A stretch of DNA of 32,000 bases from positions 450,001 to 482,000 of the forward strand of contig OZ245819.1 of assembly GCA_965228485.1 (NCBI GenBank), read 5' to 3'. This DNA comes from Candidatus Saccharimonadota bacterium. GTDB taxonomy: Bacteria > Patescibacteriota > Gracilibacteria > UBA4473. Below the pieces are notes generated by a model. It searched no databases. It saw only the letters and a program-made list of their open reading frames with translations, and was not told the origin of the DNA. Within the stretch, counting starts at the first letter, position 1; every line of letters starts with the position of its first letter. Below, in pieces: positions 3,187-19,080 of the stretch. The translations under genes were made by a program, and so were the position numbers.

Positions 3187-3214
3187 TTGACATTAAGGTT
3201 TTTTGCATTAAATT
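3187..3214 (+). promoter_or_regulatory. candidate sigma70-type promoter for the his leader
   Basis: TTGACA (3187..3192), 16-nt spacer, TAAATT (3209..3214). It starts 2 nt after the REC stop codon and lies ~12 nt upstream of the leader ATG. Confidence 0.35.
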
Positions 3215-3225
3215 TTAATGCTGAA

Positions 3226-3294
3226 ATGTTTAAACAAACTGTCGTTAACGCACATCATCACAGCGAACATCATTTTGTCGCGGTTTTTGTGTAA
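3226..3294 (+). CDS. histidine-rich leader peptide (hisL-like), MFKQTVVNAHHHSEHHFVAVFV
   Basis: 22-codon ORF below the track threshold. It has 5 His codons within 7 codons (cat cat cac agc gaa cat cat, 3253..3273). It sits directly upstream of hisG and is followed by a terminator hairpin. Confidence 0.65.
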   Translation: MFKQTVVNAHHHSEHHFVAVFV

Positions 3295-3324
3295 ACTAAA
3301 TATTTCATCAACAGTCATTCACAC

Positions 3325-3349
3325 AGTCCGCGATGCGGGCTATTTTTTT
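3325..3349 (+). terminator. intrinsic terminator acting as the his attenuator
   Basis: Stem 3325..3331 (agtccgc) pairs with 3335..3341 (gcgggct): 7 bp including one G-U, loop gat. Then a T7 run at 3343..3349, ending 21 nt before the hisG ATG. The 5' arm (ccgcga, 3328..3333) is also complementary to tcgcgg (3278..3283) inside the leader ORF. Confidence 0.65.
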
Positions 3350-3370
3350 ATTTAATTTTTCATAATAACC

Positions 3371-4468
3371 ATGTCACCAGAAAAACTACGTTCCCCAGAA
3401 GAAGTCACACCAGAAATCACCGTATTACTTCCTAAAAAGGCATTTAAAGATGGGAGTCGAAACAGCCTGTCTCAACTAGTATCTGATGCTGGCTATAACG
3501 AAGCCGCTTCAGGAAAAATGGGAAGATTTGATGAAGTAACAAATCAAGCTGGGTTTTATGAAAATGAACAAGATGTCGATATACAAACAGGAGAAATTTG
3601 TTTTAGATTTGTTAAGGATATTGGACGACTTGCTACCCAAATGAGACTCATGCAACTATCAGGAAAACCAGCTATTACAATTACTGGAAGTGATACTCTT
3701 TTGGAAGCCTACTTAAGAGTTACTCAGCAAGTCCAAGGTATTGTCCTAGAAAAAGTTGCCAACCTAGACATTGGCATTTGCAGTCTTGAATGGCTCACTC
3801 CAGAAGAAAATCCTGCTAACTCAACTCAAGCTCTTTCTGGACGAGATCTTTTTAGCAAGTACCCAGAATTAATGAGATACTTACTAAATCAATCTAGTGT
3901 TGAATCTCGAACTTTTGAAAGTGAAGGAGCTGATACGAATATTAATGACTTTAGAAGCGAAGAACTCCTTGAAACTGGGGCTCTAGAAATTGTTGGTTCA
4001 GGACAAACAGCTCTAGACCTTAAATTAAATAGATTTATGCCAGATGATGAATTATCACCGTTAAAAAATGTTCCTTTTAGCAGAATTAGTACTGATATTT
4101 TCTTGGTAAATCCTCAAAATATATCTAATCAAACTAAAATGGCCGCAATGACCGTTTGTGATGCACTGGAATCGGCCAAACCGAATGGGGCTTTTACTAG
4201 TTTAAAAGTCAATGTTCCAAAAGATAAACTCAGAAAAATTGAAGCTTTAAAAATTGGACTTATTGGCCCATCCCTTCAAAAAGTCCTGGCTAATGACGGT
4301 AGTGACTGGGTTGATGTGTCAATGGTTGTACCTGATGAAAATGCCAACGGAATTGCTACTCAGTTAAAACTCATTCTTGGAAACACTGGAACAATCTCTA
4401 TCGGAGCTAGAGGGATTAAAGGCGGTGGGAATGCAGCCTCTTCTAAATCTATTCAGTATTTTTCTTAA
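3371..4468 (+). CDS. hisG: ATP phosphoribosyltransferase, divergent long form
   Basis: 365 aa. By-eye alignment to E. coli HisG as I recall it: [27 protein letters not shown] vs [36 protein letters not shown] vs IIGENVLEEEL; PRPP-loop-like [14 protein letters not shown] vs DLVSTGATLEANGL. The C-terminal ~90 aa resemble the regulatory domain. Context supports it: His leader upstream, hisIE downstream. Confidence 0.6.
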   Translation: [365 protein letters not shown]

Positions 4469-4552
4469 ATATAATGAACCAATATTTTTCAAATAGTATT
4501 TATCATTGTTGAATAAATAATTTATTCATAAAATTATTTATTAACCTTATTA

Positions 4553-5245
4553 ATGATGAATACTAAAGAAAAATCAGGATCAACTCCTGGGTTAGATTTT
4601 GAAAAATACCCAGACAAACTTATCCCCACGGTCGTTCAAGAAAACCAAACTGGAAGAATTCTTATGGTTGGTTTTGCTGACCAGGCTGCCGTGGATAAAA
4701 CCCTTGAATCTGGATTGGCTACGTTTTGGTCTCGAAGCCAGAAAAAAGCTTGGACCAAAGGCTTAACCTCAGGTGATACCCTTAAAGTTTCTGAGATAAG
4801 AACTGACTGTGATAACGACACGCTTATTTATCTCGTGGATATGGAAGGCAAAGGAGCCTGTCACATTGATGGATGGGTTACCTGCTTTCGCCGAAGAGTT
4901 AGTTCTACAGGTCAGATAGAGGAAGTTGAGGATATTCCGACCTGGAGTCGTTTCGACTCCGAAGAACAAGCGATTATTGAAGCTCGTTCAGAAGCTGATC
5001 CCAAACAATCTTTTACCGCTAAAATGGCACAAAGTAGTCTTGAAAAAATTGCAGGGAAGATTGCCGAAGAAACGGCTGAAGTATTGAAAGCCGTCCAAAT
5101 GGGCGAAAGGCGAGAAAGAATTATTTCCGAATTGGCAGACTGTGACTATGTTTCTCGAATTTTACTCGCAAAAATTAACCAAATGATAGAAGAACCCATC
5201 TCTATCATAGATATTGAAGAGGCTGTTATTGCCCGAAGAAAATAA
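4553..5245 (+). CDS. hisIE: bifunctional phosphoribosyl-AMP cyclohydrolase / phosphoribosyl-ATP pyrophosphatase
   Basis: The N-terminal half has the HisI signature: LIPTVVQE...WSRSQKKAWTKGLTSGDTLKV..IRTDCDNDTLIYLVDMEGKGACHIDGWVTCFRR (Cys/His metal site). The C-terminal half is MazG/HisE-like: IAGKIAEETAEVLKAV ... ELADCDYVSRILLA. Confidence 0.85.
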   Translation: MMNTKEKSGSTPGLDFEKYPDKLIPTVVQENQTGRILMVGFADQAAVDKTLESGLATFWSRSQKKAWTKGLTSGDTLKVSEIRTDCDNDTLIYLVDMEGKGACHIDGWVTCFRRRVSSTGQIEEVEDIPTWSRFDSEEQAIIEARSEADPKQSFTAKMAQSSLEKIAGKIAEETAEVLKAVQMGERRERIISELADCDYVSRILLAKINQMIEEPISIIDIEEAVIARRK

Positions 5246-5246
5246 C

Positions 5247-5278
5247 AAAAAGAGGCGCCAGGTGGCGCCTCTTTTTTT
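5247..5278. terminator. bidirectional intrinsic terminator between convergent hisIE and atpA
   Basis: Perfect 9-bp GC-rich stem agaggcgcc (5251..5259) / ggcgcctct (5264..5272), 4-nt loop. Flanked by an A-run on the left and a T-run (to 5278) on the right. Confidence 0.85.
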
Positions 5279-5298: not shown

Positions 5299-7056
5299 TT
5301 ATAGAGCTCCAACTTCTTTGATAATATTTGATCGAATTTTTTCGTATCCAGCTTCATCATCAGCTTTTAGTTCTTTACATCGAGCAATCTCTTGAATCAC
5401 TGGCAGTTCTTCTACTTTAGAGAAATCGAATTCCTCACGATCAACAAGCTTCATTCCTTCGTGGTAAAGAGCCACGATAGTTTTTAGCATTTCATATTGT
5501 TTCTTTGGAATCGTGTAAGCGTCCTCTGGATCAAAAGAATCTTGGTATAGGAAATCTTCTCGAATAGATTTAGACACAAGAAGTACTAGTTTTTCTCGAA
5601 CAGAAAGTGCATCTGGTCCAACCAATCGTACAATTTCTTGAAGTTTAGATTCTTCTTGTAGAAGTGTCAGCCCTAGCTCTCGAATATCCCAGTAATCTTC
5701 TGCAACATTTTCTTTGTTGAATTTCTCAAGATTTGGTGTGTATAGAGAGTAAGACTTCAACCAGTTAATCGCTGGGAAGTGACGTTGGTAAGAAAGCTTA
5801 GAATCAAGTCCCCAGTATACTTTTGTCACTCGAAGTGTATTTTGAGATACTGGCTCAGAAAGATCCCCTCCTGGAGGAGAAACCGCTCCGATTACCGTTA
5901 GAGATCCTGTTCGTCCTTCTGTCCCTAGACATTCAACCGCTCCAGCTCGTTCGTAGAATTCTGAAGTTCGTGAACCAAGGTAAGCTGGATAACCTTCTTC
6001 CCCTGGCATTTCTTCTAGACGTCCTGACATTTCCCGCATAGCTTCTGCCCATCGAGAAGTAGAATCGGCCATTAATGCTACGTTGTATCCCATATCTCGG
6101 TAGTACTCAGCAATCGTAATTCCTGTATAAACCGAAGCTTCACGAGCCGCTACTGGCATGTTTGAAGTATTGGCGATCATTGATGTTCGTTTCATCAATG
6201 GCTCACCACTATTTGGATCAATAAGATGTGGAAATTCATTTAGTACTTCCGTCATCTCATTCCCTCGTTCTCCACAACCGATATAAATAATTACTTGTGC
6301 ATCACAGTATTTGGCAACCGTTTGTTGAGTCACTGTTTTTCCAGAACCAAATGGTCCAGGGATACATCCTGCTCCTCCTTTCGCTAAAGGGAAGAACATA
6401 TCTGTTGATCTACATCCTGTTCGAAGTGGTTCATTTGGTACAATTTTTCCATTAACTGGACGAGCCACTCGGATTGGCCAGAAGTGTCGAAGTTGAACTT
6501 TCACTTCTTTACCATCAGCATCGAGTATCGCAATATCATCCGTTACTTTAAAATGTCCTGATTCAATAGATTTTACTGTCGCTTCTTTCACGCTGGGTGG
6601 AACCATCACTTTATGGAGAATCAGTGTTGTTTCTTGTACGGTTCCTAGTGTGTCCCCTCCTTTAACTGTATCTCCAGTAGATACGGTTGGAACAAAGTCC
6701 CATTTTTTAGTTTGATCTAGTCCTGGAGCATCAATCCCACGAGCGATAAAATGCCCTGATTGTTCCTCAATTGATTCCAATGGTCGTTGAATCCCATCAT
6801 AGATAGTTTCAAGAAGACCAGGACCAAGCTCTACTGATAGAGTTTGTCCTGTAGTTTTTACTGGTTCTCCTGGACCAATACCAGCCGTTTCTTCATAAAC
6901 CTGAATGTAGGCCTGGTCATCATTAAGTCGAATTACTTCTCCAATAAGTCCCTCTTTACCAACACGAACTACTTCGTACATCTTGGCATGAGACATGTTT
7001 TCAGCAACCACAAGTGGTCCTGATACTTTAATGATTACGGGTTGTTTTTCGCTCAT
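5299..7056 (-). CDS. atpA: V/A-type ATP synthase catalytic subunit A
   Basis: 585 aa. Walker A GPFGSGKTV; typical A-subunit N-terminus (VSGPLVVAENM..MYEVVRVG), non-homologous insert and C-terminal helical domain. Confidence 0.95.
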   Translation of the reverse strand: MSEKQPVIIKVSGPLVVAENMSHAKMYEVVRVGKEGLIGEVIRLNDDQAYIQVYEETAGIGPGEPVKTTGQTLSVELGPGLLETIYDGIQRPLESIEEQSGHFIARGIDAPGLDQTKKWDFVPTVSTGDTVKGGDTLGTVQETTLILHKVMVPPSVKEATVKSIESGHFKVTDDIAILDADGKEVKVQLRHFWPIRVARPVNGKIVPNEPLRTGCRSTDMFFPLAKGGAGCIPGPFGSGKTVTQQTVAKYCDAQVIIYIGCGERGNEMTEVLNEFPHLIDPNSGEPLMKRTSMIANTSNMPVAAREASVYTGITIAEYYRDMGYNVALMADSTSRWAEAMREMSGRLEEMPGEEGYPAYLGSRTSEFYERAGAVECLGTEGRTGSLTVIGAVSPPGGDLSEPVSQNTLRVTKVYWGLDSKLSYQRHFPAINWLKSYSLYTPNLEKFNKENVAEDYWDIRELGLTLLQEESKLQEIVRLVGPDALSVREKLVLLVSKSIREDFLYQDSFDPEDAYTIPKKQYEMLKTIVALYHEGMKLVDREEFDFSKVEELPVIQEIARCKELKADDEAGYEKIRSNIIKEVGAL

Positions 7057-7085
7057 TCTTACAGCTTTAAAAATTGTTGTGGATT

Positions 7086-7145
7086 AAATCACGCGGATTC
7101 TTCGCAATTTCATCAAAATGTCAACGCTTTGCGACATTTTTTTTT
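7086..7145 (-). promoter_or_regulatory. atpA promoter module (copy of the atp operon promoter)
   Basis: Read on the minus strand: A9 (7145..7137), N12, TTGACATTTT (-35 at 7124..7119), 16-nt spacer, AAGAAT (-10 at 7102..7097), then CCGCGTGATTT. The 16-mer AGAATCCGCGTGATTT (7101..7086) is identical to 19037..19022, with identical spacing to the -35 and to the A-tract. Confidence 0.6.
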
Positions 7146-7181
7146 AGAATATCAAGCAAAGCATAAAACCTATGCAAAAAA

Positions 7182-7210
7182 TTGACTTTTTACAAAAAAA
7201 ATTATAATAT
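7182..7210 (+). promoter_or_regulatory. candidate promoter of the giant-gene pair
   Basis: TTGACT (7182..7187), 17 nt, TAATAT (7205..7210); alternatively TATAAT (7203..7208) with a 15-nt spacer. This implies a near-leaderless mRNA if the ATG at 7219 is used. Confidence 0.4.
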
Positions 7211-7218
7211 GATCTGAT

Positions 7219-10200
7219 ATGAAAATTTGGTTGGCCAACCATAATACAGAAAAACATTTTCCGAACACTCATAAAGTGTTTCGGAACGTTCATCAAATGA
7301 GTGACGATCCTGTTGATCAGCAGGTTAGTCGCTTGGCTGAAGATGTAGAAGCTCGTGTTCCTATCGAAACGGAAAAGTCTTATACTGAAACCTTCGCAAC
7401 AGTTGTAGCCCTATCGGTAGAAGAAACCATGCGTAGACAGGTGCAAGCTCCAGGCTCAACCGATCTAGAAGCTACTTATCGTACAGATTCACTAACAGAC
7501 TTTGGTGGTTTAGATCGAAAATTCTTTAGTAGCAAATGGTGGCTGACGAGTCTCTTTAACTCAAGAGCCCCAATGATGGAACTTTCTGAATTAAGAGATC
7601 CTCAAGGGAACCTTATCCCTGCTGAACTTTTGAAAGCTTCACCATACGCTCGATCTCAAACAGATGCTGCACTACTAGATGAAAGTTATAGTGGAACTTT
7701 ATCAGCTCTTAGAGCCAATGATGTCAAAAGAGACAACGTAACTTTAGCGAGCTTGGACTTTGTAGACGCTCTATTTCATGGAATTGAAGTTCCCGCTAGT
7801 AGTAGCGAACTTCTCAGACAATTAGGAGAAATCCAAGGATTGGGAAATGAGATTGTCACCGATATTCAACAGTTTGAGGCGCAACTTGCAAAACTTAGCA
7901 GCCGAGAACTCTGGAGAGAAATCGTGAGTTTCTTGCTTATCGCTCAAGAACCACGAGCAAAACTCATTAAATGGATTATCGAGCGACAACATGATCAAGG
8001 ATGGGCAGAAACTCAAGATATATTTACTTCGGCAAAACTAGAAAAAGGTCGTCAAATCCGAGCCTGGAATAATAATATTCGTCAATTCATTGCTCGAATT
8101 GACAGAACTGGGGATGATGCGGCTAAAGAAGATTTCTGGGCGCTCATCAGTTACGCCTCTCAAAACCCTACTGGTTTTGTAGCGAATCCAAACCTTGTCT
8201 TTGGAAATGTAAATTGGCAGCAGTTATCAGGATGTCCGAGTGCTATCGATTTTCTAGATACTATTAGACATAGTTCTATAGAAGGTTTGAAATTTATTCC
8301 AAACCGTTCTGGAAGAGATGGTATTACCGAATTTGAACCAGATGCTCCAAGAGCACGATATAGCTTGGTAGAGATTGCAGCTCATATGCAAGAAATGTCT
8401 CGTTTTGACGTGGCACTACAAAAATTGTTTGAACAAACCGATACAAGAATCACCCAATTCCAACAACTTTTCCGAAATACTGATTACTTTGATCTCTATA
8501 CGGAGCTAAACAATGAAATTGAAATGTCGGAAGAAGGCTCTATCGAGCAAATGCCAGACCTAAGGCAGCTTGTTCAAGATATTTCTACTTCTCTGAATGA
8601 CTGGCAGATTGGAATCAATGTAGAGAATACAATCTTCCAAGGAGTTGATCCTCGTCAATCTCCAGAAGAAGCTTTTTCTTTAATTGTGGATTATCTTAGC
8701 AGAAACCCAAACATTAGAGCTCTTCTAGATAATGATATTAAAAGACGAATCCTACGATATATTCACCTCATTGATGAAAAAGTAGAGGCAGATGCCCCAT
8801 CTGGAGCCGAAAACGAAGAAAACACCTTAGAAATAAGACACCGAATTCTTCGAATGGCTAAAATTACGCTCGAAAGAGCTCGAAGTTTAATTCAGCAAAT
8901 CCGAAGTGGAGAAATAAATAGAAAACTAAAGTCAAATGATGGTCAAGAATTCCAAAGAATAATGACCCAAATTGGGCAACTCATTGCCAGTTTTGATGAA
9001 CTTACCATTCACTTGGACAGAACCAACGACTCTGGGCATAAACTAAGAGATCGACTTCCAAAAGATGAAGCTGGAATTATTGAAAATGTAGAAACCTTAA
9101 AAGGATTTCGAGATGCTTTGTTTAGTTGGATAGGCACTATTCCAGGGGAACGAAATACGTATCTCACTACTTACCTAAACAACTTAGCCGATGAAGATGT
9201 GATTCAAGGCTATGAAAGAGCCGAACGAGAACTAAGAGATGCGATTATTGGCAATCTTACTAAAATAGATCAGATTAAAAGTGATTTAGAAACATTGAAG
9301 CAACTAGCACAACAGCAGGGAGCACAAAACATCCCAGTACAAGAAATTGACACTTTACTAGCCCAACTCGCAGTAGTTTCTGGAGCCGCTAATACTGGAG
9401 CTGTCCCAGGAGGAGGAATCTCATTGTCAGCTGAAGCTGAAAGAATTGAAGAAAGTGCACAGAAACTTATCGAAACCTACCAAGAGAATATTGTCAGATG
9501 GCGAAATGCTAAACATGGGGCTGCAGGGTTTGCTTTTACTATGCCAAAAATTGCCGAATTTGAATACGAAAGAGTAGATGACTATATTCATTTCTTAAAC
9601 GAAAGGAGAAGAAATCTCGAAGCGAGAAAACCAGCACTGTCCCCAAACCGAAGACCCAGAAGACAAACGCCTCAATCTATTGCTCAAAAGTTCAATGACA
9701 ACTTTTATCGAGAGTTTGCTAAAAGATCTCAAGATAATGCCCGAGATAAAATTTTCATGCCAAATTTTGAACCCATAAACAGACGATTATGGGAGTATCT
9801 AGAATCAATGATCCCAGGATCAAAAATTGGAAAATTGACGCTTACAAATGCAACCCATCAAAGCAAACTAAACTATCCAGGACATATACGAGACCGTGAA
9901 TATGTAAGAGACCTAACCATTATTGGAAATCGAACCATTGAAACCGAATCAGGCCCCCAAGAAGCGGTTATTCTAGAAGCTTTTGATCAAATATTATACG
10001 TCACACGTCCAACAGCAGGGGCTCAACAACCCAATATTTACAAATACGAAAAACACCCAAGCGAACATGGCGCCACCGCGAGTAACACCAACTTCAACCA
10101 AACTATGCTCGACTATCGTTTGGCGGGTTATATGCTTAGTGCTTATCCAGAAAATTTAGATGCTCCCAGCACTCTAAATAATCCTCAAAATAGACCCTAA
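7219..10200 (+). CDS. large orphan protein (993 aa), mostly helical/coiled-coil with a beta-rich C-terminal module
   Basis: Uninterrupted 2.98-kb ORF with protein-like composition. No signal peptide, TM helix or P-loop. Alternative start at M27 (nt 7297, MSDDP...). It shares N- and C-terminal motifs with the next gene (see findings). Confidence 0.8.
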   Translation: MKIWLANHNTEKHFPNTHKVFRNVHQMSDDPVDQQVSRLAEDVEARVPIETEKSYTETFATVVALSVEETMRRQVQAPGSTDLEATYRTDSLTDFGGLDRKFFSSKWWLTSLFNSRAPMMELSELRDPQGNLIPAELLKASPYARSQTDAALLDESYSGTLSALRANDVKRDNVTLASLDFVDALFHGIEVPASSSELLRQLGEIQGLGNEIVTDIQQFEAQLAKLSSRELWREIVSFLLIAQEPRAKLIKWIIERQHDQGWAETQDIFTSAKLEKGRQIRAWNNNIRQFIARIDRTGDDAAKEDFWALISYASQNPTGFVANPNLVFGNVNWQQLSGCPSAIDFLDTIRHSSIEGLKFIPNRSGRDGITEFEPDAPRARYSLVEIAAHMQEMSRFDVALQKLFEQTDTRITQFQQLFRNTDYFDLYTELNNEIEMSEEGSIEQMPDLRQLVQDISTSLNDWQIGINVENTIFQGVDPRQSPEEAFSLIVDYLSRNPNIRALLDNDIKRRILRYIHLIDEKVEADAPSGAENEENTLEIRHRILRMAKITLERARSLIQQIRSGEINRKLKSNDGQEFQRIMTQIGQLIASFDELTIHLDRTNDSGHKLRDRLPKDEAGIIENVETLKGFRDALFSWIGTIPGERNTYLTTYLNNLADEDVIQGYERAERELRDAIIGNLTKIDQIKSDLETLKQLAQQQGAQNIPVQEIDTLLAQLAVVSGAANTGAVPGGGISLSAEAERIEESAQKLIETYQENIVRWRNAKHGAAGFAFTMPKIAEFEYERVDDYIHFLNERRRNLEARKPALSPNRRPRRQTPQSIAQKFNDNFYREFAKRSQDNARDKIFMPNFEPINRRLWEYLESMIPGSKIGKLTLTNATHQSKLNYPGHIRDREYVRDLTIIGNRTIETESGPQEAVILEAFDQILYVTRPTAGAQQPNIYKYEKHPSEHGATASNTNFNQTMLDYRLAGYMLSAYPENLDAPSTLNNPQNRP

Positions 10201-10244
10201 AATACTAGTAAAAAAACTAATTTTATGGTAAAATATCAGGATTT

Positions 10245-13200
10245 ATGAAAAATTTCTGGTATTTGGAGTCTGAAAAACAAAGAACTGATGTCAATCGGTT
10301 TGTTTTTATGACCGATAGTCCAAGAAATGTAAACCGTCGAACCGATGAGCTTATTGGCGATGATATGGCGGAAAAAGTTGAAGCTAGAATGCTTGCTGGA
10401 GAGGCCTTAAGTGAATTAGATGATCACATTTCCAAACAGCTCACCGTAAAAACACACTATGGTTCTCCTCTTAGGCTTAGAAATGATCGTGGTGATACCA
10501 TCAGAGGATTAAGACAAGGAGAGGTTGTTACTTTTACGGGAGAAACAAAAATTACAAAAGATGCTAATGGGCAGGTAAGAGATACAGACGGTGACGGAAG
10601 TCTTAACAATCGTCATCTCTGGTTTAAAGTTAGAACAAGTTCAGGAGAAACTGGATGGGCGTCTGCTGAATATCTACAAGGCTCACTGAGTGCTCCCGTT
10701 ACTACGACTGAAGAACCTCTCGGGCCAGATAACAGTGTTATCCTAGCACCAGAAGAGCCTGAAGCTACTGAGCCACCCGCTCCAACAGAAGCTCCCGAAG
10801 AACCTTTACCAGACACCATAACCTTTACAAGTCTTCCTGGAGCAGCTGATAGAGCCTTAAGACGAGATATTGAAAGAAGAAGAACTACCGAAAGAACTTA
10901 TGAACGAGCACTTGATAGAGAACCTATTCCAACAAACGGAGAAACGGTTTCTCGAGCTGAGATGATTGCCAGTAAGGATTTTCAACAACATATTGATACT
11001 ATTTCACAACAAACTGGACTTCCACCGGAAAGAGTCCAGTCTATTATTAGTGACTTAGGCGTTCATCATCTGAGTTCTCCTGAGCAAATTACACAAGCGC
11101 TAGACCGCGCTGGGAGACTTCATGGTGAAGACGCATCGAAAGTACTCGATTCTCTAGCAAGAATTCCTGAAGCCGCTCAATTTTTGGTGGCTTTCAAACA
11201 TCCAAATGTGGTGAGATTTTTAAAGGGATCGGCGGTCTTTGGAGGGGTAGCACTACATACCACCTTCTGGAGCCGAATGGCCTCTGCCCCAGATTTGCGT
11301 TGGGATGGAGCCACACCAGTGACGGGGAATTCTGTCATTGATACGGGAAAATACTTTATCCCAATTGTCGGTAATGGTTTTGATTTTACCGATGCCTGGA
11401 CTGAAGCAAAACGAGGAAATATTGGATGGGCGGCTTTTAATGTCGCTACTGGAACTGTTGGTCTTGTTTTAGATGTCTTCAGTATTGTTACCGCGCCAAC
11501 AGTCGCTGGACCTGTGGCAGGACAATCTGCAAAAGCTGGATTCAAAGCCAGTATGAGAACCTTCAAATTATGGGTTAAAAGTGGTGGAGCTAAAGCCATG
11601 GCAACTCAAGCTGGAGAATTTATCGCTCGAAACACCGCTGGTGTCAGAGAAAGTCTTGGAAATTTTGCCTCTTGGGCTGGAAGACAAGCTTCGGGTATTG
11701 GAAATGCCATTTCAAACTCCCCTGTTGGTCGAGTAGCCTCAAGTGTTGGAGAAGGACTGGCTAGAGGTAGAGCTAATATTGGAAAAATTTGGGGGGTTCG
11801 ACACGCCGACAATTACATCCGTGGGATGGAAGAAGCTGCTACAGCAAATTTAGCCACCGCAAAAGCTGCCGATACTTCATTCCTTGGAAAGGCTGGAAAC
11901 TACCTTGCTTATGGAGCACGAGAAACGGTTTCAAGTCTTTATAATATTTTGACCTTTAAAATTCTTAATAGTCCTAAAGCCGCTAATGCTGCTTATGACG
12001 CTGCTCGAGTAGATCCTGAAAAGACAGAGACCGAGACAGATTCTGGAAAGATTGAAAGAGTCGCGGACGGAGTTGATATCCAAGGCAAAACGGTCCGTGC
12101 TGGTGATAAGCTTATCATTAAAGATTTAGAAAATGGACCCGCTAGAGCTAATGGACAAGAAATCATCATTGATAAAATTGAAGATGGACAAGTCTTTAGT
12201 CACTCTCCTGGATTTGATAAACCCAATCCCCCGTTTAAAGTGGACGATTTAAATGATCCAGCAAAATTTGAAGTTACTTTCCCTCGAATTGAAAAACTAA
12301 AGGAAAGTCTACAAAGAGCCAAAGATGAAGGGAGCGAAAAACTATCTGCCCTAGAGGACTCACTAAAAACTGAAAGAGACAAAACTCATCATGATTATTT
12401 TAGTGGTCGAAATATTGATCGACTAAAAACTGAAATTGAAAAAAACCAAGAAATTTTTGATGCAAAAGTTAAAGAATTTGAAACAAAAATTACTGAACTC
12501 GAAGCGAAACATAATGAATCAGAATCTGGACGACTCGCTAGTAAACCAGAGGTAAGGCAACTCATTCAAGATATAGAAAGAGAACGAGAAGCTTTTGTAA
12601 AAAGACAAAATGATAAATACGACGAAGTTCAACAAGAGATTGAAGCAGGAATAAGATCTCGAGAAGCAGAAGAGGCAGAGCTATCTAAATTTAATAAAGA
12701 AATTGAAGCTCTAAAGAATGACCAGCCTTCTGTTTTTAGAAAAATTATGGGAAAACCTAAAACTCCAGAAGCTAGACAAGCAGAAATTGACCGTATATAT
12801 AAAGAATCAATTGAACCAATGTCAGCTCGACTCGGAGAAGAAGTACCGGAAAAACCAGTCGTTTATGAAGACCCACTTGATGTGACTGATCTTGATACAA
12901 AACCTGAAAAATTAGATATAACCGACAAGGAGTTTAAACTAAAATGGGGCGATAGTGAATGGGTAGAAGTTAAAAGAAATAAAGGACGTAAAAATAACCC
13001 TGACACCATTACCGTCACAGAAATTAAGGAAGGGCCTCAGGCAGATAAAACTATTCTCACCATTGAATATGGTAAAAGTGGAGAAGCTGAATTTGGTGGT
13101 CGAAAAGTAAAATTTGCTGTTGATGAGGATGGAACTATCTGGGTTAATTCACTTGATAAACCAAGAACAAAAGTAGACGACGATCCTGATCCTCAACCTA

Positions 13201-14132
13201 GAGACAAAACCGACGAAGCAGAACCTGATAAAACTGAAGCTGATGACACTACTCCAGATAAACAAGATAGCGATCCAGAAGATACCGATACTCGTGAAAG
13301 AACTGATGATGAACCTGAGCCACGTGATCGAGAAAGACGGGATGAACCAGATCAGCCTGAACCAAAAAACTCTACGCCTCTGCGAAACTTTGAAATGAAC
13401 TATGAACATCTCAGTCGTAATGTTTTTGAACTTAAAAATACTCGACACGTTACGCTGAATGATAATTTTGGTAATACCCTTTTCCGAATAAGAGTTGGTG
13501 AAAAAAATGGTCTACTAATTCGAAGTCAAGAAGTTGGCTACAGCAAAAGCGAACAAATGCAGCAACCGACTGGAGAAAATATTACTCGTGAGTTTATTCG
13601 AGAGGACGGAACGAGTATTAAGATTGAATACCGAACGGATGGTAAATTCTTCATCGAAAAAATAGGTGAGAACAATACAGGGAAAGATAATACTACTCCT
13701 GATCGTCGAGACACTCCTGACCGTAAGGATGAAAAGAGAGATGACAAAGGAGAAGAGAGAGATAGAACTTTAAATCCTGATGATCCATTAAGTACTAAAT
13801 GGCCTTCTGAGTTATTTGCCAACCGAGGAGATATTGGACACTTGAGAACGTCTAGAATGAAACCTAATGCGGTCTATGAAGTCCAAAGAAGCCGAGAGCA
13901 AGAATTCCAATTACAAACATCCGAGGATAAATCTGCACGAATTAAATTAAGAACAACAGAAACGGGTTTAGAAGTTGAATATCTAAGAGGTTACGATGGA
14001 CCTAAGGACATCACGGAAATACCACCAGGACCAGGACATACCTTCCGAGTGGATGACAATACCTCTATACACATAAAAGTAGAACCAAGTGAAACTGGTC
14101 CAAATGTAATTTTAGAAAGAATTGACAATTAA
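10245..14132 (+). CDS. giant orphan protein (1295 aa): SH3b-like domain, P/E linker, hydrophobic Gly/Ala-rich region, long coiled coil, three beta-rich modules separated by acidic linkers
   Basis: Uninterrupted 3.9-kb ORF starting 44 nt after the previous gene. SH3b-like LRLRNDRGDTIRGLRQGEVVTFTGE...LWFKVRTSSGETGWASAEYL (nt ~10440..10682). Alternative start at M22 (nt 10308, MTDSP...). Its TAA stop overlaps the atpF stop. Confidence 0.8.
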   Translation: MKNFWYLESEKQRTDVNRFVFMTDSPRNVNRRTDELIGDDMAEKVEARMLAGEALSELDDHISKQLTVKTHYGSPLRLRNDRGDTIRGLRQGEVVTFTGETKITKDANGQVRDTDGDGSLNNRHLWFKVRTSSGETGWASAEYLQGSLSAPVTTTEEPLGPDNSVILAPEEPEATEPPAPTEAPEEPLPDTITFTSLPGAADRALRRDIERRRTTERTYERALDREPIPTNGETVSRAEMIASKDFQQHIDTISQQTGLPPERVQSIISDLGVHHLSSPEQITQALDRAGRLHGEDASKVLDSLARIPEAAQFLVAFKHPNVVRFLKGSAVFGGVALHTTFWSRMASAPDLRWDGATPVTGNSVIDTGKYFIPIVGNGFDFTDAWTEAKRGNIGWAAFNVATGTVGLVLDVFSIVTAPTVAGPVAGQSAKAGFKASMRTFKLWVKSGGAKAMATQAGEFIARNTAGVRESLGNFASWAGRQASGIGNAISNSPVGRVASSVGEGLARGRANIGKIWGVRHADNYIRGMEEAATANLATAKAADTSFLGKAGNYLAYGARETVSSLYNILTFKILNSPKAANAAYDAARVDPEKTETETDSGKIERVADGVDIQGKTVRAGDKLIIKDLENGPARANGQEIIIDKIEDGQVFSHSPGFDKPNPPFKVDDLNDPAKFEVTFPRIEKLKESLQRAKDEGSEKLSALEDSLKTERDKTHHDYFSGRNIDRLKTEIEKNQEIFDAKVKEFETKITELEAKHNESESGRLASKPEVRQLIQDIEREREAFVKRQNDKYDEVQQEIEAGIRSREAEEAELSKFNKEIEALKNDQPSVFRKIMGKPKTPEARQAEIDRIYKESIEPMSARLGEEVPEKPVVYEDPLDVTDLDTKPEKLDITDKEFKLKWGDSEWVEVKRNKGRKNNPDTITVTEIKEGPQADKTILTIEYGKSGEAEFGGRKVKFAVDEDGTIWVNSLDKPRTKVDDDPDPQPRDKTDEAEPDKTEADDTTPDKQDSDPEDTDTRERTDDEPEPRDRERRDEPDQPEPKNSTPLRNFEMNYEHLSRNVFELKNTRHVTLNDNFGNTLFRIRVGEKNGLLIRSQEVGYSKSEQMQQPTGENITREFIREDGTSIKIEYRTDGKFFIEKIGENNTGKDNTTPDRRDTPDRKDEKRDDKGEERDRTLNPDDPLSTKWPSELFANRGDIGHLRTSRMKPNAVYEVQRSREQEFQLQTSEDKSARIKLRTTETGLEVEYLRGYDGPKDITEIPPGPGHTFRVDDNTSIHIKVEPSETGPNVILERIDN

Positions 14133-14482
14133 CCGAGGATATCACTTCCAACCGCTCGTTCTACAATCTTTCTCATTCGATTTGCGGCAAAGTTATCGTC
14201 TCCAGACTTTGAAGATGGTACCGGAATTACCGCTGGTAGTGGTTTTCGAGCAAATCTCTCAATCACATCTTCTGAAAAGTTTTTGTAGTAATCTTCTTCA
14301 ACAAAAAGTACCGCATATTCTGCTGTTTTTGCTTCGTCCCCTTTATTCGCCATAAAAAGTTCTTCCGCTTTTTCTTGCGCTTCATCTTGAGTGTACACTC
14401 CGTAAGTTTCACATCCAAGGGCTCGGTAGATTAGTACCGAACTTACATTCCCGACAACGGCTAATTTGTATTCCTCAGACAT
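14129..14482 (-). CDS. atpF: V/A-type ATP synthase subunit F
   Basis: 117 aa. KLAVVGNVSSVLIYRALG, AVLFVEE, PAVIPVPS, KIVERAVGSDIL match the NtpG/AtpF pattern. Confidence 0.85.
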   Translation of the reverse strand: MSEEYKLAVVGNVSSVLIYRALGCETYGVYTQDEAQEKAEELFMANKGDEAKTAEYAVLFVEEDYYKNFSEDVIERFARKPLPAVIPVPSSKSGDDNFAANRMRKIVERAVGSDILG

Positions 14483-14483
14483 G

Positions 14484-15491
14484 TTAGAGTCGTTCTAAAA
14501 GATCATAAATTTGCTCCGAAGTAAGACCATTAAACTTACCGTACATGATCAATTTCAAAACCTGAGCATTTCTCATTCTTCTTTCGAAGTAATTGATCAA
14601 TACCGCTAGTCCTGGTCCAGAACCAAGGGACTCCCATTTAAGGAAGTCATAGTAATATCTATCTAGTTCTCTTTCAATCGCATAAATAGAGCCGACTGGG
14701 TCATCTTTATCAATTTGTTCTGCGGCTTTGTTAAACTTCGTTCGAAGCATATATTTCGAAAGTTCATCAGCACTGTGAACTCTCTCTACCGCGTAGTAAG
14801 CTACATTCCCTCCTGTGATCCAAGTTTCTTTTGGCACTTCCGTTCCTCGAATCAAAACACATCGAGACAGATTTCGGAAATTCACTCTATCAATCCAGTG
14901 TCGCACAAGTTTTTGTAGGAAATGGTCTTTTACTCGCTCATTTCTTAAGTCCATGAAAAATTCTCCCATAGCTTTATCGAGAGCAAACTCAACCGCTAAG
15001 AAATTATCGGCTTCTTTGTAAATATTTTCAGCCTGCTCTACCACAGCATAAATTGTAAAAGGGATGCGTCTATGAGTATGACCACCAAAGACAACCTCTT
15101 CCAATTCTTTTTGGCTCAACATTGCCAGATTAGAGTACCCTTCGTTTTCAGAAAAAGTTTCAATCCCCGTTTTGCCTTCAAGAATTTTAGCCTTTAGAGC
15201 TCGTTTGATGTTGTTTATATCAAACTGAAGCCAAAGGAATCTTAACCCTTCATCATTCTCAGATCCTTTCATCAAAAGATCTTTTGTTTCAAAGAGACCT
15301 TGTCTAATAATTGTATAAAAATCTTTTACCGTTGTTTCTTCATCAATAAACTCTGCGTAATTTGATTCTACCAAAACTCGAAAAGCTTCTTCTGGAGTTT
15401 CGGCTCCAACCATTCGATCAATCTGAGCTTGGTTTAACAACCGAGACTCTTGTGCTCGAACCTGACCGGATACAAACGAAAAATAAGGCAT
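14484..15491 (-). CDS. atpC: V/A-type ATP synthase subunit C (eukaryotic d-like)
   Basis: 335 aa helical protein. Position between E and F in the operon, with size and pattern typical of AtpC/NtpC. Confidence 0.8.
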   Translation of the reverse strand: MPYFSFVSGQVRAQESRLLNQAQIDRMVGAETPEEAFRVLVESNYAEFIDEETTVKDFYTIIRQGLFETKDLLMKGSENDEGLRFLWLQFDINNIKRALKAKILEGKTGIETFSENEGYSNLAMLSQKELEEVVFGGHTHRRIPFTIYAVVEQAENIYKEADNFLAVEFALDKAMGEFFMDLRNERVKDHFLQKLVRHWIDRVNFRNLSRCVLIRGTEVPKETWITGGNVAYYAVERVHSADELSKYMLRTKFNKAAEQIDKDDPVGSIYAIERELDRYYYDFLKWESLGSGPGLAVLINYFERRMRNAQVLKLIMYGKFNGLTSEQIYDLLERL

Positions 15492-15494
15492 ATT

Positions 15495-16052
15495 TTAAAC
15501 AAGCTTCAATTGATCTGTGAAGTACATTTCAAGTGGTTGTTTGTACTCAGAGAAGACCAAATTTTTAAATGAGTTATCAATCTCCATTCCATCAGCAACA
15601 CAGACAAAACCTCCTTTGATATCATTATCTGCTTTAACATCGAAATCCTTCCCTAATAAAGGTTTAAGAACTTCAACATCAGCTTTTGCTGCACGAACAC
15701 TTCCCTTTTCAACTCCCATTTGAGTAATTTGAGCTTTAAAGATAGTCGTCTTTGTCTCGTTATCAGCTATCACTAGAGCTTCAAAGAATTTTTCCATTGC
15801 TGCATCTAAAACTGCTCGACGAGCGCTCAATAGAGCTTGTCTATTTTCTCGCCGAGCCATAGTATCAATTTTAGTGTCCACAGCTTCTAGAGCTGCTTCC
15901 GTTTTAACCTCAAGCGCTGCTAATTCTTCTTTTCTTGAAACTTTCGCTTTTTCAGAAACTTCTACTTTATCTTTCTCTAGTTGAACTTGAATTTCAGCAA
16001 TACGAGCTTCACTTTCTGCTTGAATTTTTTTGATGATATCTTGCAACGCCAT
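15495..16052 (-). CDS. atpE: V/A-type ATP synthase subunit E (peripheral stalk)
   Basis: 185 aa. N-terminal long charged helix (LQDIIKKIQAESEARIAEIQVQLEKDK) plus a globular C-terminus. Operon position fits. Confidence 0.8.
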   Translation of the reverse strand: MALQDIIKKIQAESEARIAEIQVQLEKDKVEVSEKAKVSRKEELAALEVKTEAALEAVDTKIDTMARRENRQALLSARRAVLDAAMEKFFEALVIADNETKTTIFKAQITQMGVEKGSVRAAKADVEVLKPLLGKDFDVKADNDIKGGFVCVADGMEIDNSFKNLVFSEYKQPLEMYFTDQLKLV

Positions 16053-16085
16053 GATTAATTTTTTCTAATAAATTTTAATTGGAAA

Positions 16086-16556
16086 TTAGATTTGCACTGC
16101 ATTAGCAATTAGAAGTGCAACCAGTAGACCGAAAATAGCGTAAGTTTCTACTACCACCGCTAGAACGATCGCTTTACCTGTAAGACTTTCATCTCGAGCC
16201 ATAGCTCCAATACCAGAAGCTACTACTTTCCCTTGAAACCATCCAGAGAAAAGACCAGCCAATCCCATAAGGATTCCTGCCCACATGAATTGACTTCCTG
16301 CTTCTACTGCTACTTCTGCTCCTCCTCCAAAGAATCCGATCTTAGAAAGAACAAAGATAGCGATAAGAAGTCCATATACTCCTTGAGATCCTGGAAGGGC
16401 CGATAGGATCAAAATTTTACCGAAAAGGTGTGGTTTTTCAGCAAGAACTCCTGCACCTTTAGCCCCAGCGGCTCCAATACCGATTGATGATCCTGCTCCT
16501 CCGAGAACAGCAGACATTGCAGCTCCGATAACTGCGAGAACGATTCCTGATTCCAT
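16086..16556 (-). CDS. atpK: V/A-type ATP synthase proteolipid subunit K (4-TM, duplicated c)
   Basis: 156 aa. Aligns by eye along its whole length with Enterococcus hirae NtpK as I recall it: ALPGSQGVYGLLIAI, GLFSGWFQGKVVASGI, VVVETYAIFGLLVALLI. Confidence 0.9.
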   Translation of the reverse strand: MESGIVLAVIGAAMSAVLGGAGSSIGIGAAGAKGAGVLAEKPHLFGKILILSALPGSQGVYGLLIAIFVLSKIGFFGGGAEVAVEAGSQFMWAGILMGLAGLFSGWFQGKVVASGIGAMARDESLTGKAIVLAVVVETYAIFGLLVALLIANAVQI

Positions 16557-16641
16557 GATTTTTTGTGATTAAAAATTGAAAATTTGTCGGGCGAATTTTT
16601 TGTAATTTAAGTAAATTGTCAACCCATTTACCTAACTTTTT

Positions 16642-18663
16642 TTATTTCTCTATATTTAAGTATTTGTGTTTACGAATAAAGGGATCAAACTTTGTTCCCC
16701 CACCTTCGTAAAACTTGCCAAAGAACTCAATAAATTGGAGACGTCCAGAGTGGATAAAAGCCCCCAATAGAGAAAGTCCAAAGTTTAAGGTATGACCAAA
16801 AAGGATAACAATCGCCCCAATAAGAATTCCAAGTGTCCAATGAGGCATCATTCCGCCGAGAATCCCAGCGGTCATATTCATGGCAAAACCAACTACTCCT
16901 GTAGCCAATCCTAATGCCATAATACGGGAATAACTTAATAAATCTGAAAGATACGAAGTTGAATTATAAAGACTGATAAGTCCAAATAGTGGCTTCAAGA
17001 ACCATTTAACATCAGCAATAATTGCCTGTGAAATAAACAACACTAGTGCTGATAGTTTTGCTAGGTTTGTCATCATGGCCTTATCTAGTCCAGTGGCCGC
17101 TGCAACTGGCTCTACTGAAGAAAGCCCAAAAAGCACAAGTGATCCAATAAAGAAGAACCAAGCTCCTGAATTAAGCACCGCACCATTATAATCTTTATTT
17201 GATAGTCGTTGGAAGAAATCAATAACTAACCCCGTTAGTAGTTGAAGTGCCCCCAGACCAAGAGCTACGCTCAAGAATAAGATTGGCCCAGACCCTTCCA
17301 TAGGATTTAGAAGCTGCCCGTAAAATTGTCCCGTATTCGGATTCACCAACCAAGAAAGCTGATCGGTTGTAAGTCCAAAGTGTCCCCCAAGAATTACTCC
17401 TCCAATAAAAGCTGAAATTCCACAGAACAGTAGTAGTAAAAGTGAATCTTTGGCAGCCTTCCCAAATTTCCCAAAGATCAAAAACCACGTGGCTACTAAA
17501 ATAAGAATTGAACCATATCCAGTATCAGAAAGACAGAGTCCAAAGAATACAAAAAAGAATGGCATAATAAAAGGCGTTGGATCAAACTCCGTCACCTTCG
17601 GAAGTCCATACATCTCAACTACCGGTTCAAAAGAACGAATCCCCCACTTATTACTCAATAATACTGGTGGTTCTTCATCTTTCTCTGGCTTGATTTCTTC
17701 AAGGCTCACTTCTCCAACAAAAATATTCTTAATCCATTTTTTCAGATCAGGCAAAGCACTAGAAAGTGCCCATGCCTCAAAAGCAAAAACTTGATCTGAT
17801 AGGTAAATCTTTTGCTGAAGATCGTTTTTGGTCTTTCTCCATGAATTGAAATCAAAAAGAATTTTTAAATCTTCGATATTAACGGTTAACTTTTTAACTC
17901 GAGCTTCCAGTTCTTCTCTTTCCTCCTGATAATCAACAAGCTGCTTATCCAATTCTCGAACGATAGTTTTAATATTTTTTCCTTCAAAATCCCCAAACTC
18001 TTGACCAAGATTAATCGGTTCAAAAGCGTATTTAGATACAATTCCTTGAGTCTGAGTTTTAAGCTCATTCCAAACCGTCAATCGCACAAAAACAATCTTC
18101 TTGAGACGTCCAAGAATTTTAAGATCTACTAAGTTGGATTCTGAAGACACTTCTTGTTGGAAAGCTTCAAACTGCTCTCCTGGGATCTTCCCAATCCATG
18201 TAGTTGTTTTTTCTGTAGCATAATCCGCATTAATGGTTGAATCGAATTGACCAAGCGTATCAAGTAATCGTTTTTTTACTGGAATACTATCAATTTCGTT
18301 TTTTACCCGAACCAACCGATCTTCGATCTTTTCACACTCTTCAATAATTTTTTCAGATTTTGGAGCAAAGTTTTTCAATCGATCTTTTGCTGCATCCTCA
18401 GAGAGTACTAGTTTTCCTCCAGAGAGAATAGACTCAATCTTAGAACCTGGAGTTGCGAATGGAGATAGAAATTCTAGAGCAAACTCAATCCGAGCTAAAT
18501 CAAAAACTCCGAAGTGATCATCATACTCTTTTTTTGACTGTTCAACGAACTCTGAATTCTCCACAACCTGAAGTGTTCCACTTCTGTGAAGTTCTTGCAT
18601 CAAAATTTTATAATGGGATTTAAATCCCGTAATCCGAACTTTTTTCAGCTGTGCCTTGGCCAT
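16642..18663 (-). CDS. atpI: V/A-type ATP synthase subunit I (stator a-subunit)
   Basis: 673 aa. Soluble coiled N-terminal half plus a polytopic C-terminal half ending ...SYSRIMALGLATGVV...HSGRLQFIEFFGKFYEGGG. The ATG directly abuts the TAG of the upstream gene. Confidence 0.9.
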   Translation of the reverse strand: MAKAQLKKVRITGFKSHYKILMQELHRSGTLQVVENSEFVEQSKKEYDDHFGVFDLARIEFALEFLSPFATPGSKIESILSGGKLVLSEDAAKDRLKNFAPKSEKIIEECEKIEDRLVRVKNEIDSIPVKKRLLDTLGQFDSTINADYATEKTTTWIGKIPGEQFEAFQQEVSSESNLVDLKILGRLKKIVFVRLTVWNELKTQTQGIVSKYAFEPINLGQEFGDFEGKNIKTIVRELDKQLVDYQEEREELEARVKKLTVNIEDLKILFDFNSWRKTKNDLQQKIYLSDQVFAFEAWALSSALPDLKKWIKNIFVGEVSLEEIKPEKDEEPPVLLSNKWGIRSFEPVVEMYGLPKVTEFDPTPFIMPFFFVFFGLCLSDTGYGSILILVATWFLIFGKFGKAAKDSLLLLLFCGISAFIGGVILGGHFGLTTDQLSWLVNPNTGQFYGQLLNPMEGSGPILFLSVALGLGALQLLTGLVIDFFQRLSNKDYNGAVLNSGAWFFFIGSLVLFGLSSVEPVAAATGLDKAMMTNLAKLSALVLFISQAIIADVKWFLKPLFGLISLYNSTSYLSDLLSYSRIMALGLATGVVGFAMNMTAGILGGMMPHWTLGILIGAIVILFGHTLNFGLSLLGAFIHSGRLQFIEFFGKFYEGGGTKFDPFIRKHKYLNIEK

Positions 18664-19002
18664 CTATGAAACAATTTCATTAACAAAATAAGTCTGAACC
18701 TGAGGTAAAATCTTATCGATTTTTGGCTCAATATTCTTCTTCAACTGAGAAGCTTCTTTCTCACCCTCTTTAATAAGTCCCTCATAACGTCCTCTCGCTA
18801 CTTCTTGACGGTCTTTTAACTTTCCTTTGGCTTCTACTCGTGCAGTCTCTAGTGCCGCTTGAGTTTTTTCTCCTTCTTTTTTGCTATGAGTTTGTAAGTC
18901 AGAAGCTGCTTTTCTTCGTGCCTTTTCCACTTTAGCCACCGCCTCTTCTTCAGCCACTTGAATTTGGGCTAGAAAATCATTTGAATTGGTCGATTTCGAC
19001 AT
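18664..19002 (-). CDS. atpH: small coiled-coil ATPase stalk subunit (G/H-like)
   Basis: The track starts this ORF at 19023, but that codon is TTG and lies inside the promoter motif. The first ATG is at 19002 (MSKSTNS...), giving 112 aa. Charged helical sequence (AQIQVAEEEAVAKVEKARRKA...). First gene of the operon. Confidence 0.6.
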   Translation of the reverse strand: MSKSTNSNDFLAQIQVAEEEAVAKVEKARRKAASDLQTHSKKEGEKTQAALETARVEAKGKLKDRQEVARGRYEGLIKEGEKEASQLKKNIEPKIDKILPQVQTYFVNEIVS

Positions 19003-19021
19003 ACTTTTATGCTTAAAAAAC

Positions 19022-19080
19022 AAATCACGCGGATTCTGGTCAAGTTCTATAAAATGTCAATTCAGAAAATAATTTTTTTT
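19022..19080 (-). promoter_or_regulatory. atp operon promoter module
   Basis: Read on the minus strand: A8 (19080..19073), N12, TTGACATTTT (-35 at 19060..19055), 16-nt spacer, CAGAAT (-10 at 19038..19033), then CCGCGTGATTT. 19 nt separate the motif from the ATG at 19002. Confidence 0.6.

Follow-up and report, generated by a model that had tools for sequence, protein, structure and literature searches.

The V/A-ATPase operon is among the most stable gene arrays of prokaryotes, its canonical form being exemplified by atpGIKECFABD of Thermus and ntpFIKECGABDHJ of Enterococcus hirae. Canonical operons are also present in CPR bacteria, namely in Peregrinibacteria and Peribacteria (loci L005-L008 and L024-L088), the A subunits of which are 61–70% identical to the one described here. 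Dispersed A-ATPase genes are already known from Crenarchaeota and Nanoarchaeum: the subunit genes of Thermoproteus tenax, Ignicoccus hospitalis and Nanoarchaeum equitans are scattered over several loci, A and B being unlinked (PMC3189178, PMC3149612), and in I. hospitalis A and B are equally abundant and the complex is still made (PMC3149612, PMC3189178). In the CPR clade considered below, A is likewise unlinked from the other subunit genes. It differs from these cases in that its members are bacteria rather than archaea, in that B and D are only presumed to be encoded in trans, and in that an apparent stepwise series (departure of D, then of B) is accompanied by a hypervariable slot between F and A. 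A literature search turned up no account of such an arrangement for Gracilibacteria or Patescibacteria.

The stretch of DNA analysed here (32 kb; hereafter the window) encodes the same subunit families as the canonical operon, in the same order, H-I-K-E-C-F...A, and all on the minus strand. A unit of six genes begins with putative subunit H/G (18664..19023; 119 aa, coiled coil) and continues with the membrane stator subunit I (a) (16642..18663), the four-TM proteolipid K (c) (16086..16556), E (15495..16052), C (d) (14484..15491) and, as the last gene, F (14129..14482). The genes are spaced by 0 to 85 nt, H lying immediately upstream of I (0 nt). In contrast to the canonical operon, 7,072 bp of antisense coding DNA stand between F and the gene for the catalytic subunit, atpA (5299..7056); two giant plus-strand genes, G2 (10245..14132; 1295 aa) and G1 (7219..10200; 993 aa), occupy this interval. 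The stop codons of G2 and F overlap (TTAA at 14129-14132), whereas G1 diverges from atpA across an intergenic region of 162 bp (7057..7218). Beyond atpA lies a hairpin resembling a bidirectional intrinsic terminator (5247..5276; a 13-bp stem, 7 of its pairs being GC, and T runs on either strand), and the next gene is not B but the convergent hisIE (4553..5245, plus strand; PF01502 and PF01503), with which the ATPase region ends. The ORF coordinates thus agree with the first-pass annotation, which had placed atpA apart from H-I-K-E-C-F on the same strand, with two giant genes in between and a terminator and hisIE downstream.

Neither B nor D is adjacent to A or present elsewhere in the 32 kb, as judged from HMM searches (61 B and 60 D sequences) of all six frames under genetic codes 11 and 25. 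The suggestions that both genes are missing downstream of atpA and that A is separated from the stator and rotor genes as well as from its partner B are therefore borne out for the window by coordinates and HMMs alike. The subunit genes do not form a single operon, in which all of them would be contiguous on one strand and F, A, B and D adjacent. The F/A split concerns which genes are present and how they are ordered, and no statistical signal is involved. The usage of code 25 (UGA = Gly) in BD1-5/SR1 had raised the idea that genes might be hidden or split in the window; this was rejected, as no window gene contains an in-frame TGA, ORF boundaries are identical under both codes and TGA terminates two of the genes.

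Promoters and terminators were assigned by consensus matching. A pattern match, TTGACA-16-AAGAAT, lies in front of atpA (7124-7097, minus strand) and another, TTGACT-17-TAATAT, in front of G1 (7182-7210, plus strand), both within the divergent intergenic region, and a third, TTGACA-16-CAGAAT, precedes H (19060-19033); in the consensus scan such promoter-like sites were no commoner in the real than in shuffled sequence. With a promoter-like site of its own and the terminator-like hairpin behind it, atpA is apparently monocistronic.

Subunit A carries four A-specific domains (PF02874, PF16886, PF00006 and PF22919) and scores 867 bits against NF003220 (cut-off 470). It possesses the features expected of a V/A-ATPase A subunit, namely the P-loop, the catalytic Glu and the A-specific barrel-sandwich insert (PF16886), and its motifs GPFGSGKT and GERGNEM are intact in the alignment to the Pyrococcus A subunit (1VDZ; E 3.6e-224). 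Matches exceeding the cut-offs were also obtained for F (PF01990, E 2.9e-11), C (PF01992, E 5.9e-37), I (PF01496, E 5.7e-19) and K (PF00137 twice, two hairpins, E 5.8e-34). The closest relative of K with a solved structure is NtpK of E. hirae (2BL2, E 1.4e-24), and the ion-site positions are retained. Subunit E gave weak matches (PF01991, E 2.6e-4, below cut-off; NCBIfam PRK02292, E 1e-11, yet below the curated cut-off). H was called from its position and a weak match to NCBIfam NF006256 (E 0.008); homologues occupy the equivalent position in L012, L015, L091, L093 and L094.

The arrangement was compared among 28 loci, the window included, at which A shares 70% identity or more with that of the window (L001-4, L009-23, L089, L091 and L094). 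At all 28, which come from independent assemblies, A is uncoupled from B and D: tblastn and HMM searches up to 10 kb on either side of A recovered neither. In contrast, all 62 more distant loci (A identity no higher than 70%) whose contigs extend past A retain F-A-B, B following A directly. The comparison of synteny called for by the earlier note thus places a contiguous F-A-B only in distant loci. A large antisense ORF follows F at nine clade-related loci, and at seven of them (the window, L003, L012, L018, L019, L020 and L091) it sits between F and A, in a gap of 3.2–7.1 kb that in each case includes an antisense ORF of 632–1295 aa abutting A. The other two (L093 and L095) are shorter contigs with antisense ORFs after F, at which point the contigs end. 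Every clade relative with F and A on one strand has one or two large antisense genes in between. In L009 (A 84% identical) two antisense ORFs, of 1635 and 1267 aa, lie upstream of A. A scan of JGI metagenomes with an alignment of C subunits (the window and five clade relatives) retrieved additional F-gap-A loci as well as loci with inverted A/H-I, with no B or D at the loci recovered; a scan of viral contigs with A gave no match. As the antisense-ORF gap occurs in three separate subclades, the split must predate the window genome, and the sequences point to an old, clade-wide arrangement in which the content of the gap turns over rapidly.

Across the clade, A is 70–84% identical with all catalytic motifs kept, and I of the window is 42–54% identical to that of clade relatives. 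All seven ATPase genes of the window are intact, as are the V-ATPase genes detected at the clade loci. When pairs of equal A divergence (75–80% identity) are compared, the identities of I, E and C are 47, 41 and 43% in the clade versus 51, 39 and 41% in canonical operons, while those of K and F are somewhat lower in the clade (56 and 54% versus 73 and 61%). Relative to A, the accessory subunits would thus seem to change at roughly the usual pace, with K and F being somewhat faster.

G1 has no match in Pfam, NCBIfam, PHROG or PADLOC and no similarity to the gap ORFs of other loci. Scans of both genes against PHROG and PADLOC yielded nothing meaningful. In G2, an SH3b-like domain (about aa 84-145) and a conserved helical, Gly/Ala-rich core (about aa 200-480) are accompanied by a coiled coil and by charged repeats. 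Its SH3_3 match (E 4e-5) scores 24.1 bits at full length and 26.9 bits with fragment 1-680, the cut-off being 27. An AF2 model of residues 1-680 is confident only at about 40-150 and 240-310; the SH3-like part is modelled as a beta-barrel (pLDDT about 90), for which Foldseek returned SH3b endolysin domains as top matches, none of them significant (E >0.04). The G2 family is small, with 35 representatives of roughly 1000 aa among 1.84e9 proteins; SH3_3 is matched in 10 of 24 members, and LysM or PG_binding_1 in single members. On account of the SH3b-like domain, G2 probably binds the cell wall, as a surface or secreted protein. A likeness of the Gly/Ala-rich core to the pre-toxin TG domain, noticed by eye, was dismissed, Pfam offering no support even at E <=5. 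Among the gap ORFs of other loci, G2 resembles only the 1635-aa ORF adjoining atpA in L009, through its N-terminus (29% identity, E 2e-7), whereas there is mutual resemblance among those of L018/L019/L091, L020 and L095. Judged by these comparisons, the gap genes are orphans encoding very fast-evolving proteins.

In a quick neighbour-joining distance tree of A, built without support values, the loci with solitary A are monophyletic. Their nearest neighbours are L025/L029 and then L026, where I-K-E-C-F-A-B is kept with no D downstream; L098 and the P0265 contig share the L026 layout (A-B, no D) and group with L026 by their B sequences. These sister lineages, labelled Altimarinota/Gracilibacteria, resemble the window in phylogenetic position and in partial decay of the operon, and L025 has an MFS-HEAT neighbour of the same kind upstream; they differ from it in that A directly follows F and B directly follows A (L025, L029, L026 and L098). 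Because they keep F-A-B without D, the series suggests that the operon decayed stepwise, D leaving first and B being separated from A later.

B was searched for with a Peregrinibacteria query and then with the B of sister-lineage L025; the matches listed reach down to 75% and about 63% identity, respectively, and comprise 240 B clusters, the most divergent large-contig candidates of which were inspected. Among these 240 no B could be assigned to a contig carrying a clade A, five contigs of 0.77-1.3 Mb included. L090 was rejected as a source of clade B, as it is an A-B contig of the L026 type, and the divergent B genes on the large contigs P0278 and P0265 turned out to belong to A-B operons without D rather than to be solitary. 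The D profile (60 sequences, PF01813 family) had no match in the window or at the clade loci, nor is D adjacent to B in the sister lineages. The absence of B and D proposed in the first-pass annotation accordingly holds within the window and, in the relatives, within a distance of up to 10 kb on either side of A.

We consider it probable that the V/A-ATPase operon came apart in the course of evolution and that the genes of the enzyme are today distributed over three or more places, B and D being outside the window. The source would be a bacterium of a CPR clade with tiny genomes, labelled Gracilibacteria/Altimarinota, with a fragmented V/A-type ATPase operon. The first place would be the operon H-I-K-E-C-F, which is preceded by a promoter-like site and ends back-to-back against a giant gene; the second, monocistronic atpA with a promoter-like site and a bidirectional terminator; and the third, atpB and atpD somewhere else in the genome. 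The slot between F and A would be a hypervariable locus for large, very fast-evolving antisense genes. That the enzyme works we infer from the promoter-like site and terminator of atpA, the intact motifs and the near-normal rates of the accessory subunits.

An artificial origin of the layout, with misjoined F/G2 and G1/A junctions hiding a genomic F-A-B-D, is extremely unlikely. F, antisense ORF and A recur in independent assemblies from NCBI, ENA, GTDB and JGI, including GCA_030632415.1 and an ENA contig (L003/L004), JABAZT010000020.1 (L012), the genomes of three GTDB species (L018-L020) and, from JGI, a contig of a metagenome (L091), so that the doubt raised earlier, that no independent assembly might reproduce the order, does not hold. 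Moreover, B is missing after A at every clade locus, and the junctions look native, with overlapping stops at one end and a divergent promoter-like region at the other. The earlier description of the gap as an insert is correct as far as the interruption of F-A is concerned; as a recent event in this genome, be it a mobile element or a horizontally acquired island entering an intact F-A junction, it is very improbable. The gap genes are orphans, and their content differs even from that of the closest relative (A 84% identical), as a recent arrival would predict. However, none of the hallmarks of mobile elements or genomic islands was seen: the gap contains no integrase, transposase, terminal or flanking direct or inverted repeats, target duplication or tRNA, and its GC content (0.40 versus 0.38 for the window) betrays no compositional shift. 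Large antisense ORFs occupying the gap in three subclades and the homology of the G2 N-terminus to the atpA-adjacent ORF of L009 also speak against it.

Could the locus be a relic, B and D having been lost, the remainder heading towards pseudogenes and the cell relying on another ATPase or on a host? The failure to find B and D at the loci searched and among the listed B clusters would fit, as would the incomplete bioenergetics common among CPR bacteria and the use of F-type enzymes by the BD1-5 and SR1 relatives (PMC6851277, PMC8080830). We nevertheless regard this as unlikely, because relics would not remain intact over such divergence, with A keeping all its catalytic motifs clade-wide and the accessory subunits under near-normal constraint. 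A novel ATPase dispensing with B, in which A forms a homo-oligomer (FliI/T3SS-like) or takes a non-canonical partner while I-K-E-C-F are still used, would account for an A that is always monocistronic and strongly conserved in the clade and for the undetected B. It has no positive evidence in its favour, and we hold it to be highly doubtful: the retained E, F and C (d) are seen bound to B or D in the solved structures of V/A-ATPases, and sister lineages without D in the operon still have B beside A. In all known V/A-ATPases, B contributes to each catalytic site and holds the E/G stalks. There is likewise little likelihood that the clade as a whole truly lacks atpB and atpD, with A driving I-K-E-C-F through an A-only ring or an unrecognised replacement. 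In a weaker variant of this improbable reading, the antisense giants would be co-regulated with the ATPase through the divergent promoter shared with A and the convergent overlap with F; surface or attack proteins would then be tied to energy supply.

Returning to the fragmented operon, we most likely have before us an ordinary rotary V/A-ATPase, possibly coupled to Na+, whose subunits are transcribed separately and then assembled, as in Crenarchaeota and Nanoarchaeum; the split is an evolutionary curiosity, not a new kind of machine. Should B and D prove to be really absent, this would be an important result for the biology of rotary ATPases. On short contigs, automated metabolic reconstruction would tend to score the ATPase of such bacteria as incomplete or absent. 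The clade offers a clean natural case for studying how stoichiometric complexes cope with lost co-transcription, and also for studying the workings of genome flux in CPR bacteria.

All seven V/A-type ATPase genes of the window are intact and lie on the minus strand. Six of them follow one another at spacings of 0-85 nt: a 119-aa coiled-coil H/G subunit (19023..18664; assigned by position and a weak NF006256 match), I (18663..16642; PF01496), K (16556..16086; PF00137, two hairpins), E (16052..15495; weak Pfam match, PRK02292 E 1e-11), C/d (15491..14484; PF01992) and F (14482..14129; PF01990). The seventh, atpA (7056..5299), encodes a protein with all four A-type domains, the A-specific insert PF16886 among them (NF003220, 867 bits), and is followed by a bidirectional hairpin with a 13-bp stem (5247-5276) and then by the convergent hisIE and hisG. 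The interval between F and atpA is occupied by two large plus-strand ORFs, G1 (993 aa; 7219..10200) and G2 (1295 aa; 10245..14132). Profile HMMs of B (61 sequences) and D (60 sequences) matched nothing in the six frames of the window, whether translated with code 11 or code 25. The ORF map and the Pfam and NCBIfam scans thus agree exactly with the split located by the first-pass annotation, whose two giant genes, missing B and D subunits, and terminator with convergent hisIE were likewise borne out; its interpretation is supported overall.

The nearest relatives of the A protein carry the labels Candidatus Gracilibacteria, Altimarinota or "Peribacteria", and the source is therefore a CPR bacterium. 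UGA encodes glycine in some Gracilibacteria. Code 25 as the source of a wrong gene map was ruled out: re-calling the ORFs without TGA as a stop left the boundaries unchanged, TGA stands in frame in no gene of the window (1-32000), and it serves as the stop of two, one of them with an ATGA overlap onto the next (e.g. 126-647, 685-2808/2805-3185). The last two observations show that the organism uses the standard code, in contrast to the Gracilibacteria/Altimarinota labels of the relatives, a group known for this recoding. The histidine-biosynthesis genes are noteworthy in a CPR genome of ~1.3 Mb; HisG is of the long form (3371-4468, plus strand; weak Pfam match, E 1e-6). Elsewhere in the window dnaN stands without an adjacent dnaA (25670-26770, minus strand, and 26771-27037), and the cumulative GC skew declines steadily, the plus-strand G1-G2 block excepted; it thus tracks the coding strand and gives no sign of an origin.

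The surroundings of A homologues were collected from public assemblies and one genome per GTDB species (80 loci), and subunits were placed by tblastn. Where A is at most 70% identical to that of the window, B directly follows A in 62 of the 62 loci whose contig extends past A, and D follows B in all but three (L025, L026 and L029) of those that reach far enough. In the clade with A at least 70% identical (L001-4, L009-23 and L089, with L091 and L094 added from JGI), neither B nor D was found near A at any locus; the sequence covered reaches as far as 10 kb to either side of A, and 13 loci include all 10 kb downstream. I-K-E-C-F and, beyond a gap, A share one strand at seven loci: the window, L003/L004 (two independent records), L012, L018, L019, L020 and L091. 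At the remaining loci A is a singleton amid unrelated genes, apart from a third arrangement in L015 (131-4431) and L094 (4-5199), where atpA is inverted and stands head-to-head with H-I-K-E-C, divergently and ~190 bp apart. The window could itself be an assembly chimera, a misjoin that the first-pass annotation had proposed to check for; given that F-gap-A recurs in independent assemblies and that A is uncoupled from B and D throughout the clade, this is very unlikely.

In L003 (GCA_030632415.1; 12546-20783) atpA and hisG are separated by a type I restriction-modification cluster (hsdM, hsdS, hsdR with HATPase and ParA-like genes), whereas hisG and hisIE abut atpA directly in the window. Upstream of the ATPase genes the window encodes a fusion of an MFS transporter and HEAT repeats (19608-22022, minus strand), a relative of which (24% identical) lies upstream of the operon in L025 (1962-4265); the fusion may be a conserved ATPase neighbour.

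The gap measures 3.2-7.1 kb in the seven F-gap-A loci, and a large ORF that begins beside A runs antisense to the ATPase genes: against 993 and 1295 aa in the window, the gap ORFs have 806 aa in L003, 839 aa in L012, 632-634 aa in L018/L091, 642 aa in L019 and 1144 aa in L020. Two further contigs are shorter and end before any A: in L095, F is followed by an antisense ORF of 858 aa, and L093 has the same first gap genes as L020. In L009 (OZ246423.1; A 84% identical), the closest relative with a complete chromosome, antisense ORFs of 1635 and 1267 aa lie directly upstream of A. The second of these (1112-4915, minus strand) carries an AAA+ (MoxR/Mg-chelatase-like) domain (PHROG 249, E 2e-20) that is absent from G1, for which no match was found in Pfam, NCBIfam, PHROG or PADLOC. 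In sequence, G1 and G2 scarcely resemble the gap ORFs of other loci, the one exception being an alignment between the SH3-like N-terminal region of G2 and the N-terminus of the 1635-aa ORF (29% identity, E 2e-7); the gap ORFs of L018/L019/L091, L020 and L095 resemble one another. The first 680 residues of G2 have 35 representatives in 1.84 billion protein clusters, and an SH3_3 match occurs in 10 of 24 family members, with LysM or PG_binding_1 in single members. An AlphaFold model of G2 1-680 is confident in two places only, the SH3-like barrel and a single helical domain, and Foldseek returned SH3b endolysin domains at non-significant E-values; judging from this one borderline domain, G2 may bind the cell wall and be exposed at the surface. 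We detected no integrase or tRNA in the gap, no repeats at its flanks and no change in composition, and read it as a hypervariable slot of long standing that houses large proteins evolving at a rapid rate. By eye, a short motif, MKxFxF...(R/K)FV(F/W/Y), recurs at the N-termini of the large gap proteins, which have no obvious signal peptide (window 10245-10700; L009 9244-9843; L018 4093-5991; L019 3479-5407; L020 6164-9598); the motif could be a lineage-specific export signal.

Promoter-like hexamers precede H (19060-19033), atpA (7124-7097) and G1 (7182-7210), a terminator-like hairpin (19128-19107) comes after the DUF805 gene that lies upstream, and the bidirectional hairpin after atpA is strong. 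Such promoter-like sites are no commoner in the window than in shuffled sequence, so they are consistent with, rather than evidence for, three putative units, H-F, atpA alone and G1-G2. The stops of G2 and F overlap (TTAA, 14129-14132), leaving no room for a terminator, and convergent read-through is therefore possible.

In a quick neighbour-joining distance tree of A, computed without support values, the solo-A group is monophyletic. Its nearest neighbours, L025 and L029, retain I-K-E-C-F-A-B; next out is L026, with which L098, L090 and the P0265 contig group by their B sequences and in which A-B is again found without D. No D occurs after B or within several kb in L025 (11785-13182), L029 (6293-7690), L026 (11804-13177) or L098 (6001-7374), while Peregrinibacteria and Peribacteria, further out, have the full operon. 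The departure of D from the operon hence predates the A/B split and is the more widespread of the two, and the simplest reading is a stepwise decay in which D left first and B parted from A later, an order that we infer from this quick tree. Since F-gap-A occurs in three separate subclades, it is probably ancestral to the clade, A having been relocated later.

The subunits themselves are ordinary for a V/A-ATPase; it is their organisation that differs. A keeps the P-loop and the catalytic GERGNEM motif (archaeal A, 1VDZ, E 3.6e-224). K (16086-16556, minus strand) is a 4-TM proteolipid that, among solved structures, comes closest to the Na+-translocating NtpK of Enterococcus hirae (2BL2), and its LPG(S)QG, QGK and VETY stretches are at what we take to be the positions of the NtpK Na+ site; from these residues, the enzyme may be Na+-coupled. 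For locus pairs at equal A divergence (75-80% identity), conservation in the clade equals that in canonical lineages for I (47% against 51%), E (41% against 39%) and C (43% against 41%), and is somewhat lower for K (56% against 73%) and F (54% against 61%). Every V-ATPase gene detected at the clade loci is intact, which, with the catalytic motifs and the normal conservation of I, E and C, favours a working complex; B and D would therefore be encoded elsewhere. The sister lineages, with eight subunit genes and no adjacent D, show that it is normal for this group to encode subunits in trans, unless they too have lost D. The clade might instead truly lack B and D. In two B searches no B among the matches listed lay on a contig that corresponds to one carrying a clade A, and the solo-B candidates checked proved to be A-B operons; as the lists (at least 240 clusters) stop at 75% and ~63% identity, slightly above where a clade B might fall, absence of B is only weakly suggested and far from shown. 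We regard a true lack of both subunits as highly improbable, and consider it likely that a functional enzyme would be assembled from subunits encoded at dispersed loci.

A precedent exists in the Ignicoccus/Nanoarchaeum pair, where the locus numbers of A and B lie far apart although the two are equally abundant (PMC3149612). F-type enzymes have been described from published Gracilibacteria (BD1-5) and Absconditabacteria genomes (PMC6851277, PMC8080830), and no published description of the present arrangement was found in the literature searched. What is new is therefore a bacterial, clade-wide and stepwise operon fragmentation with a conserved hypervariable slot; a true lack of B and D in the clade, were it the case, is what would make the finding important.
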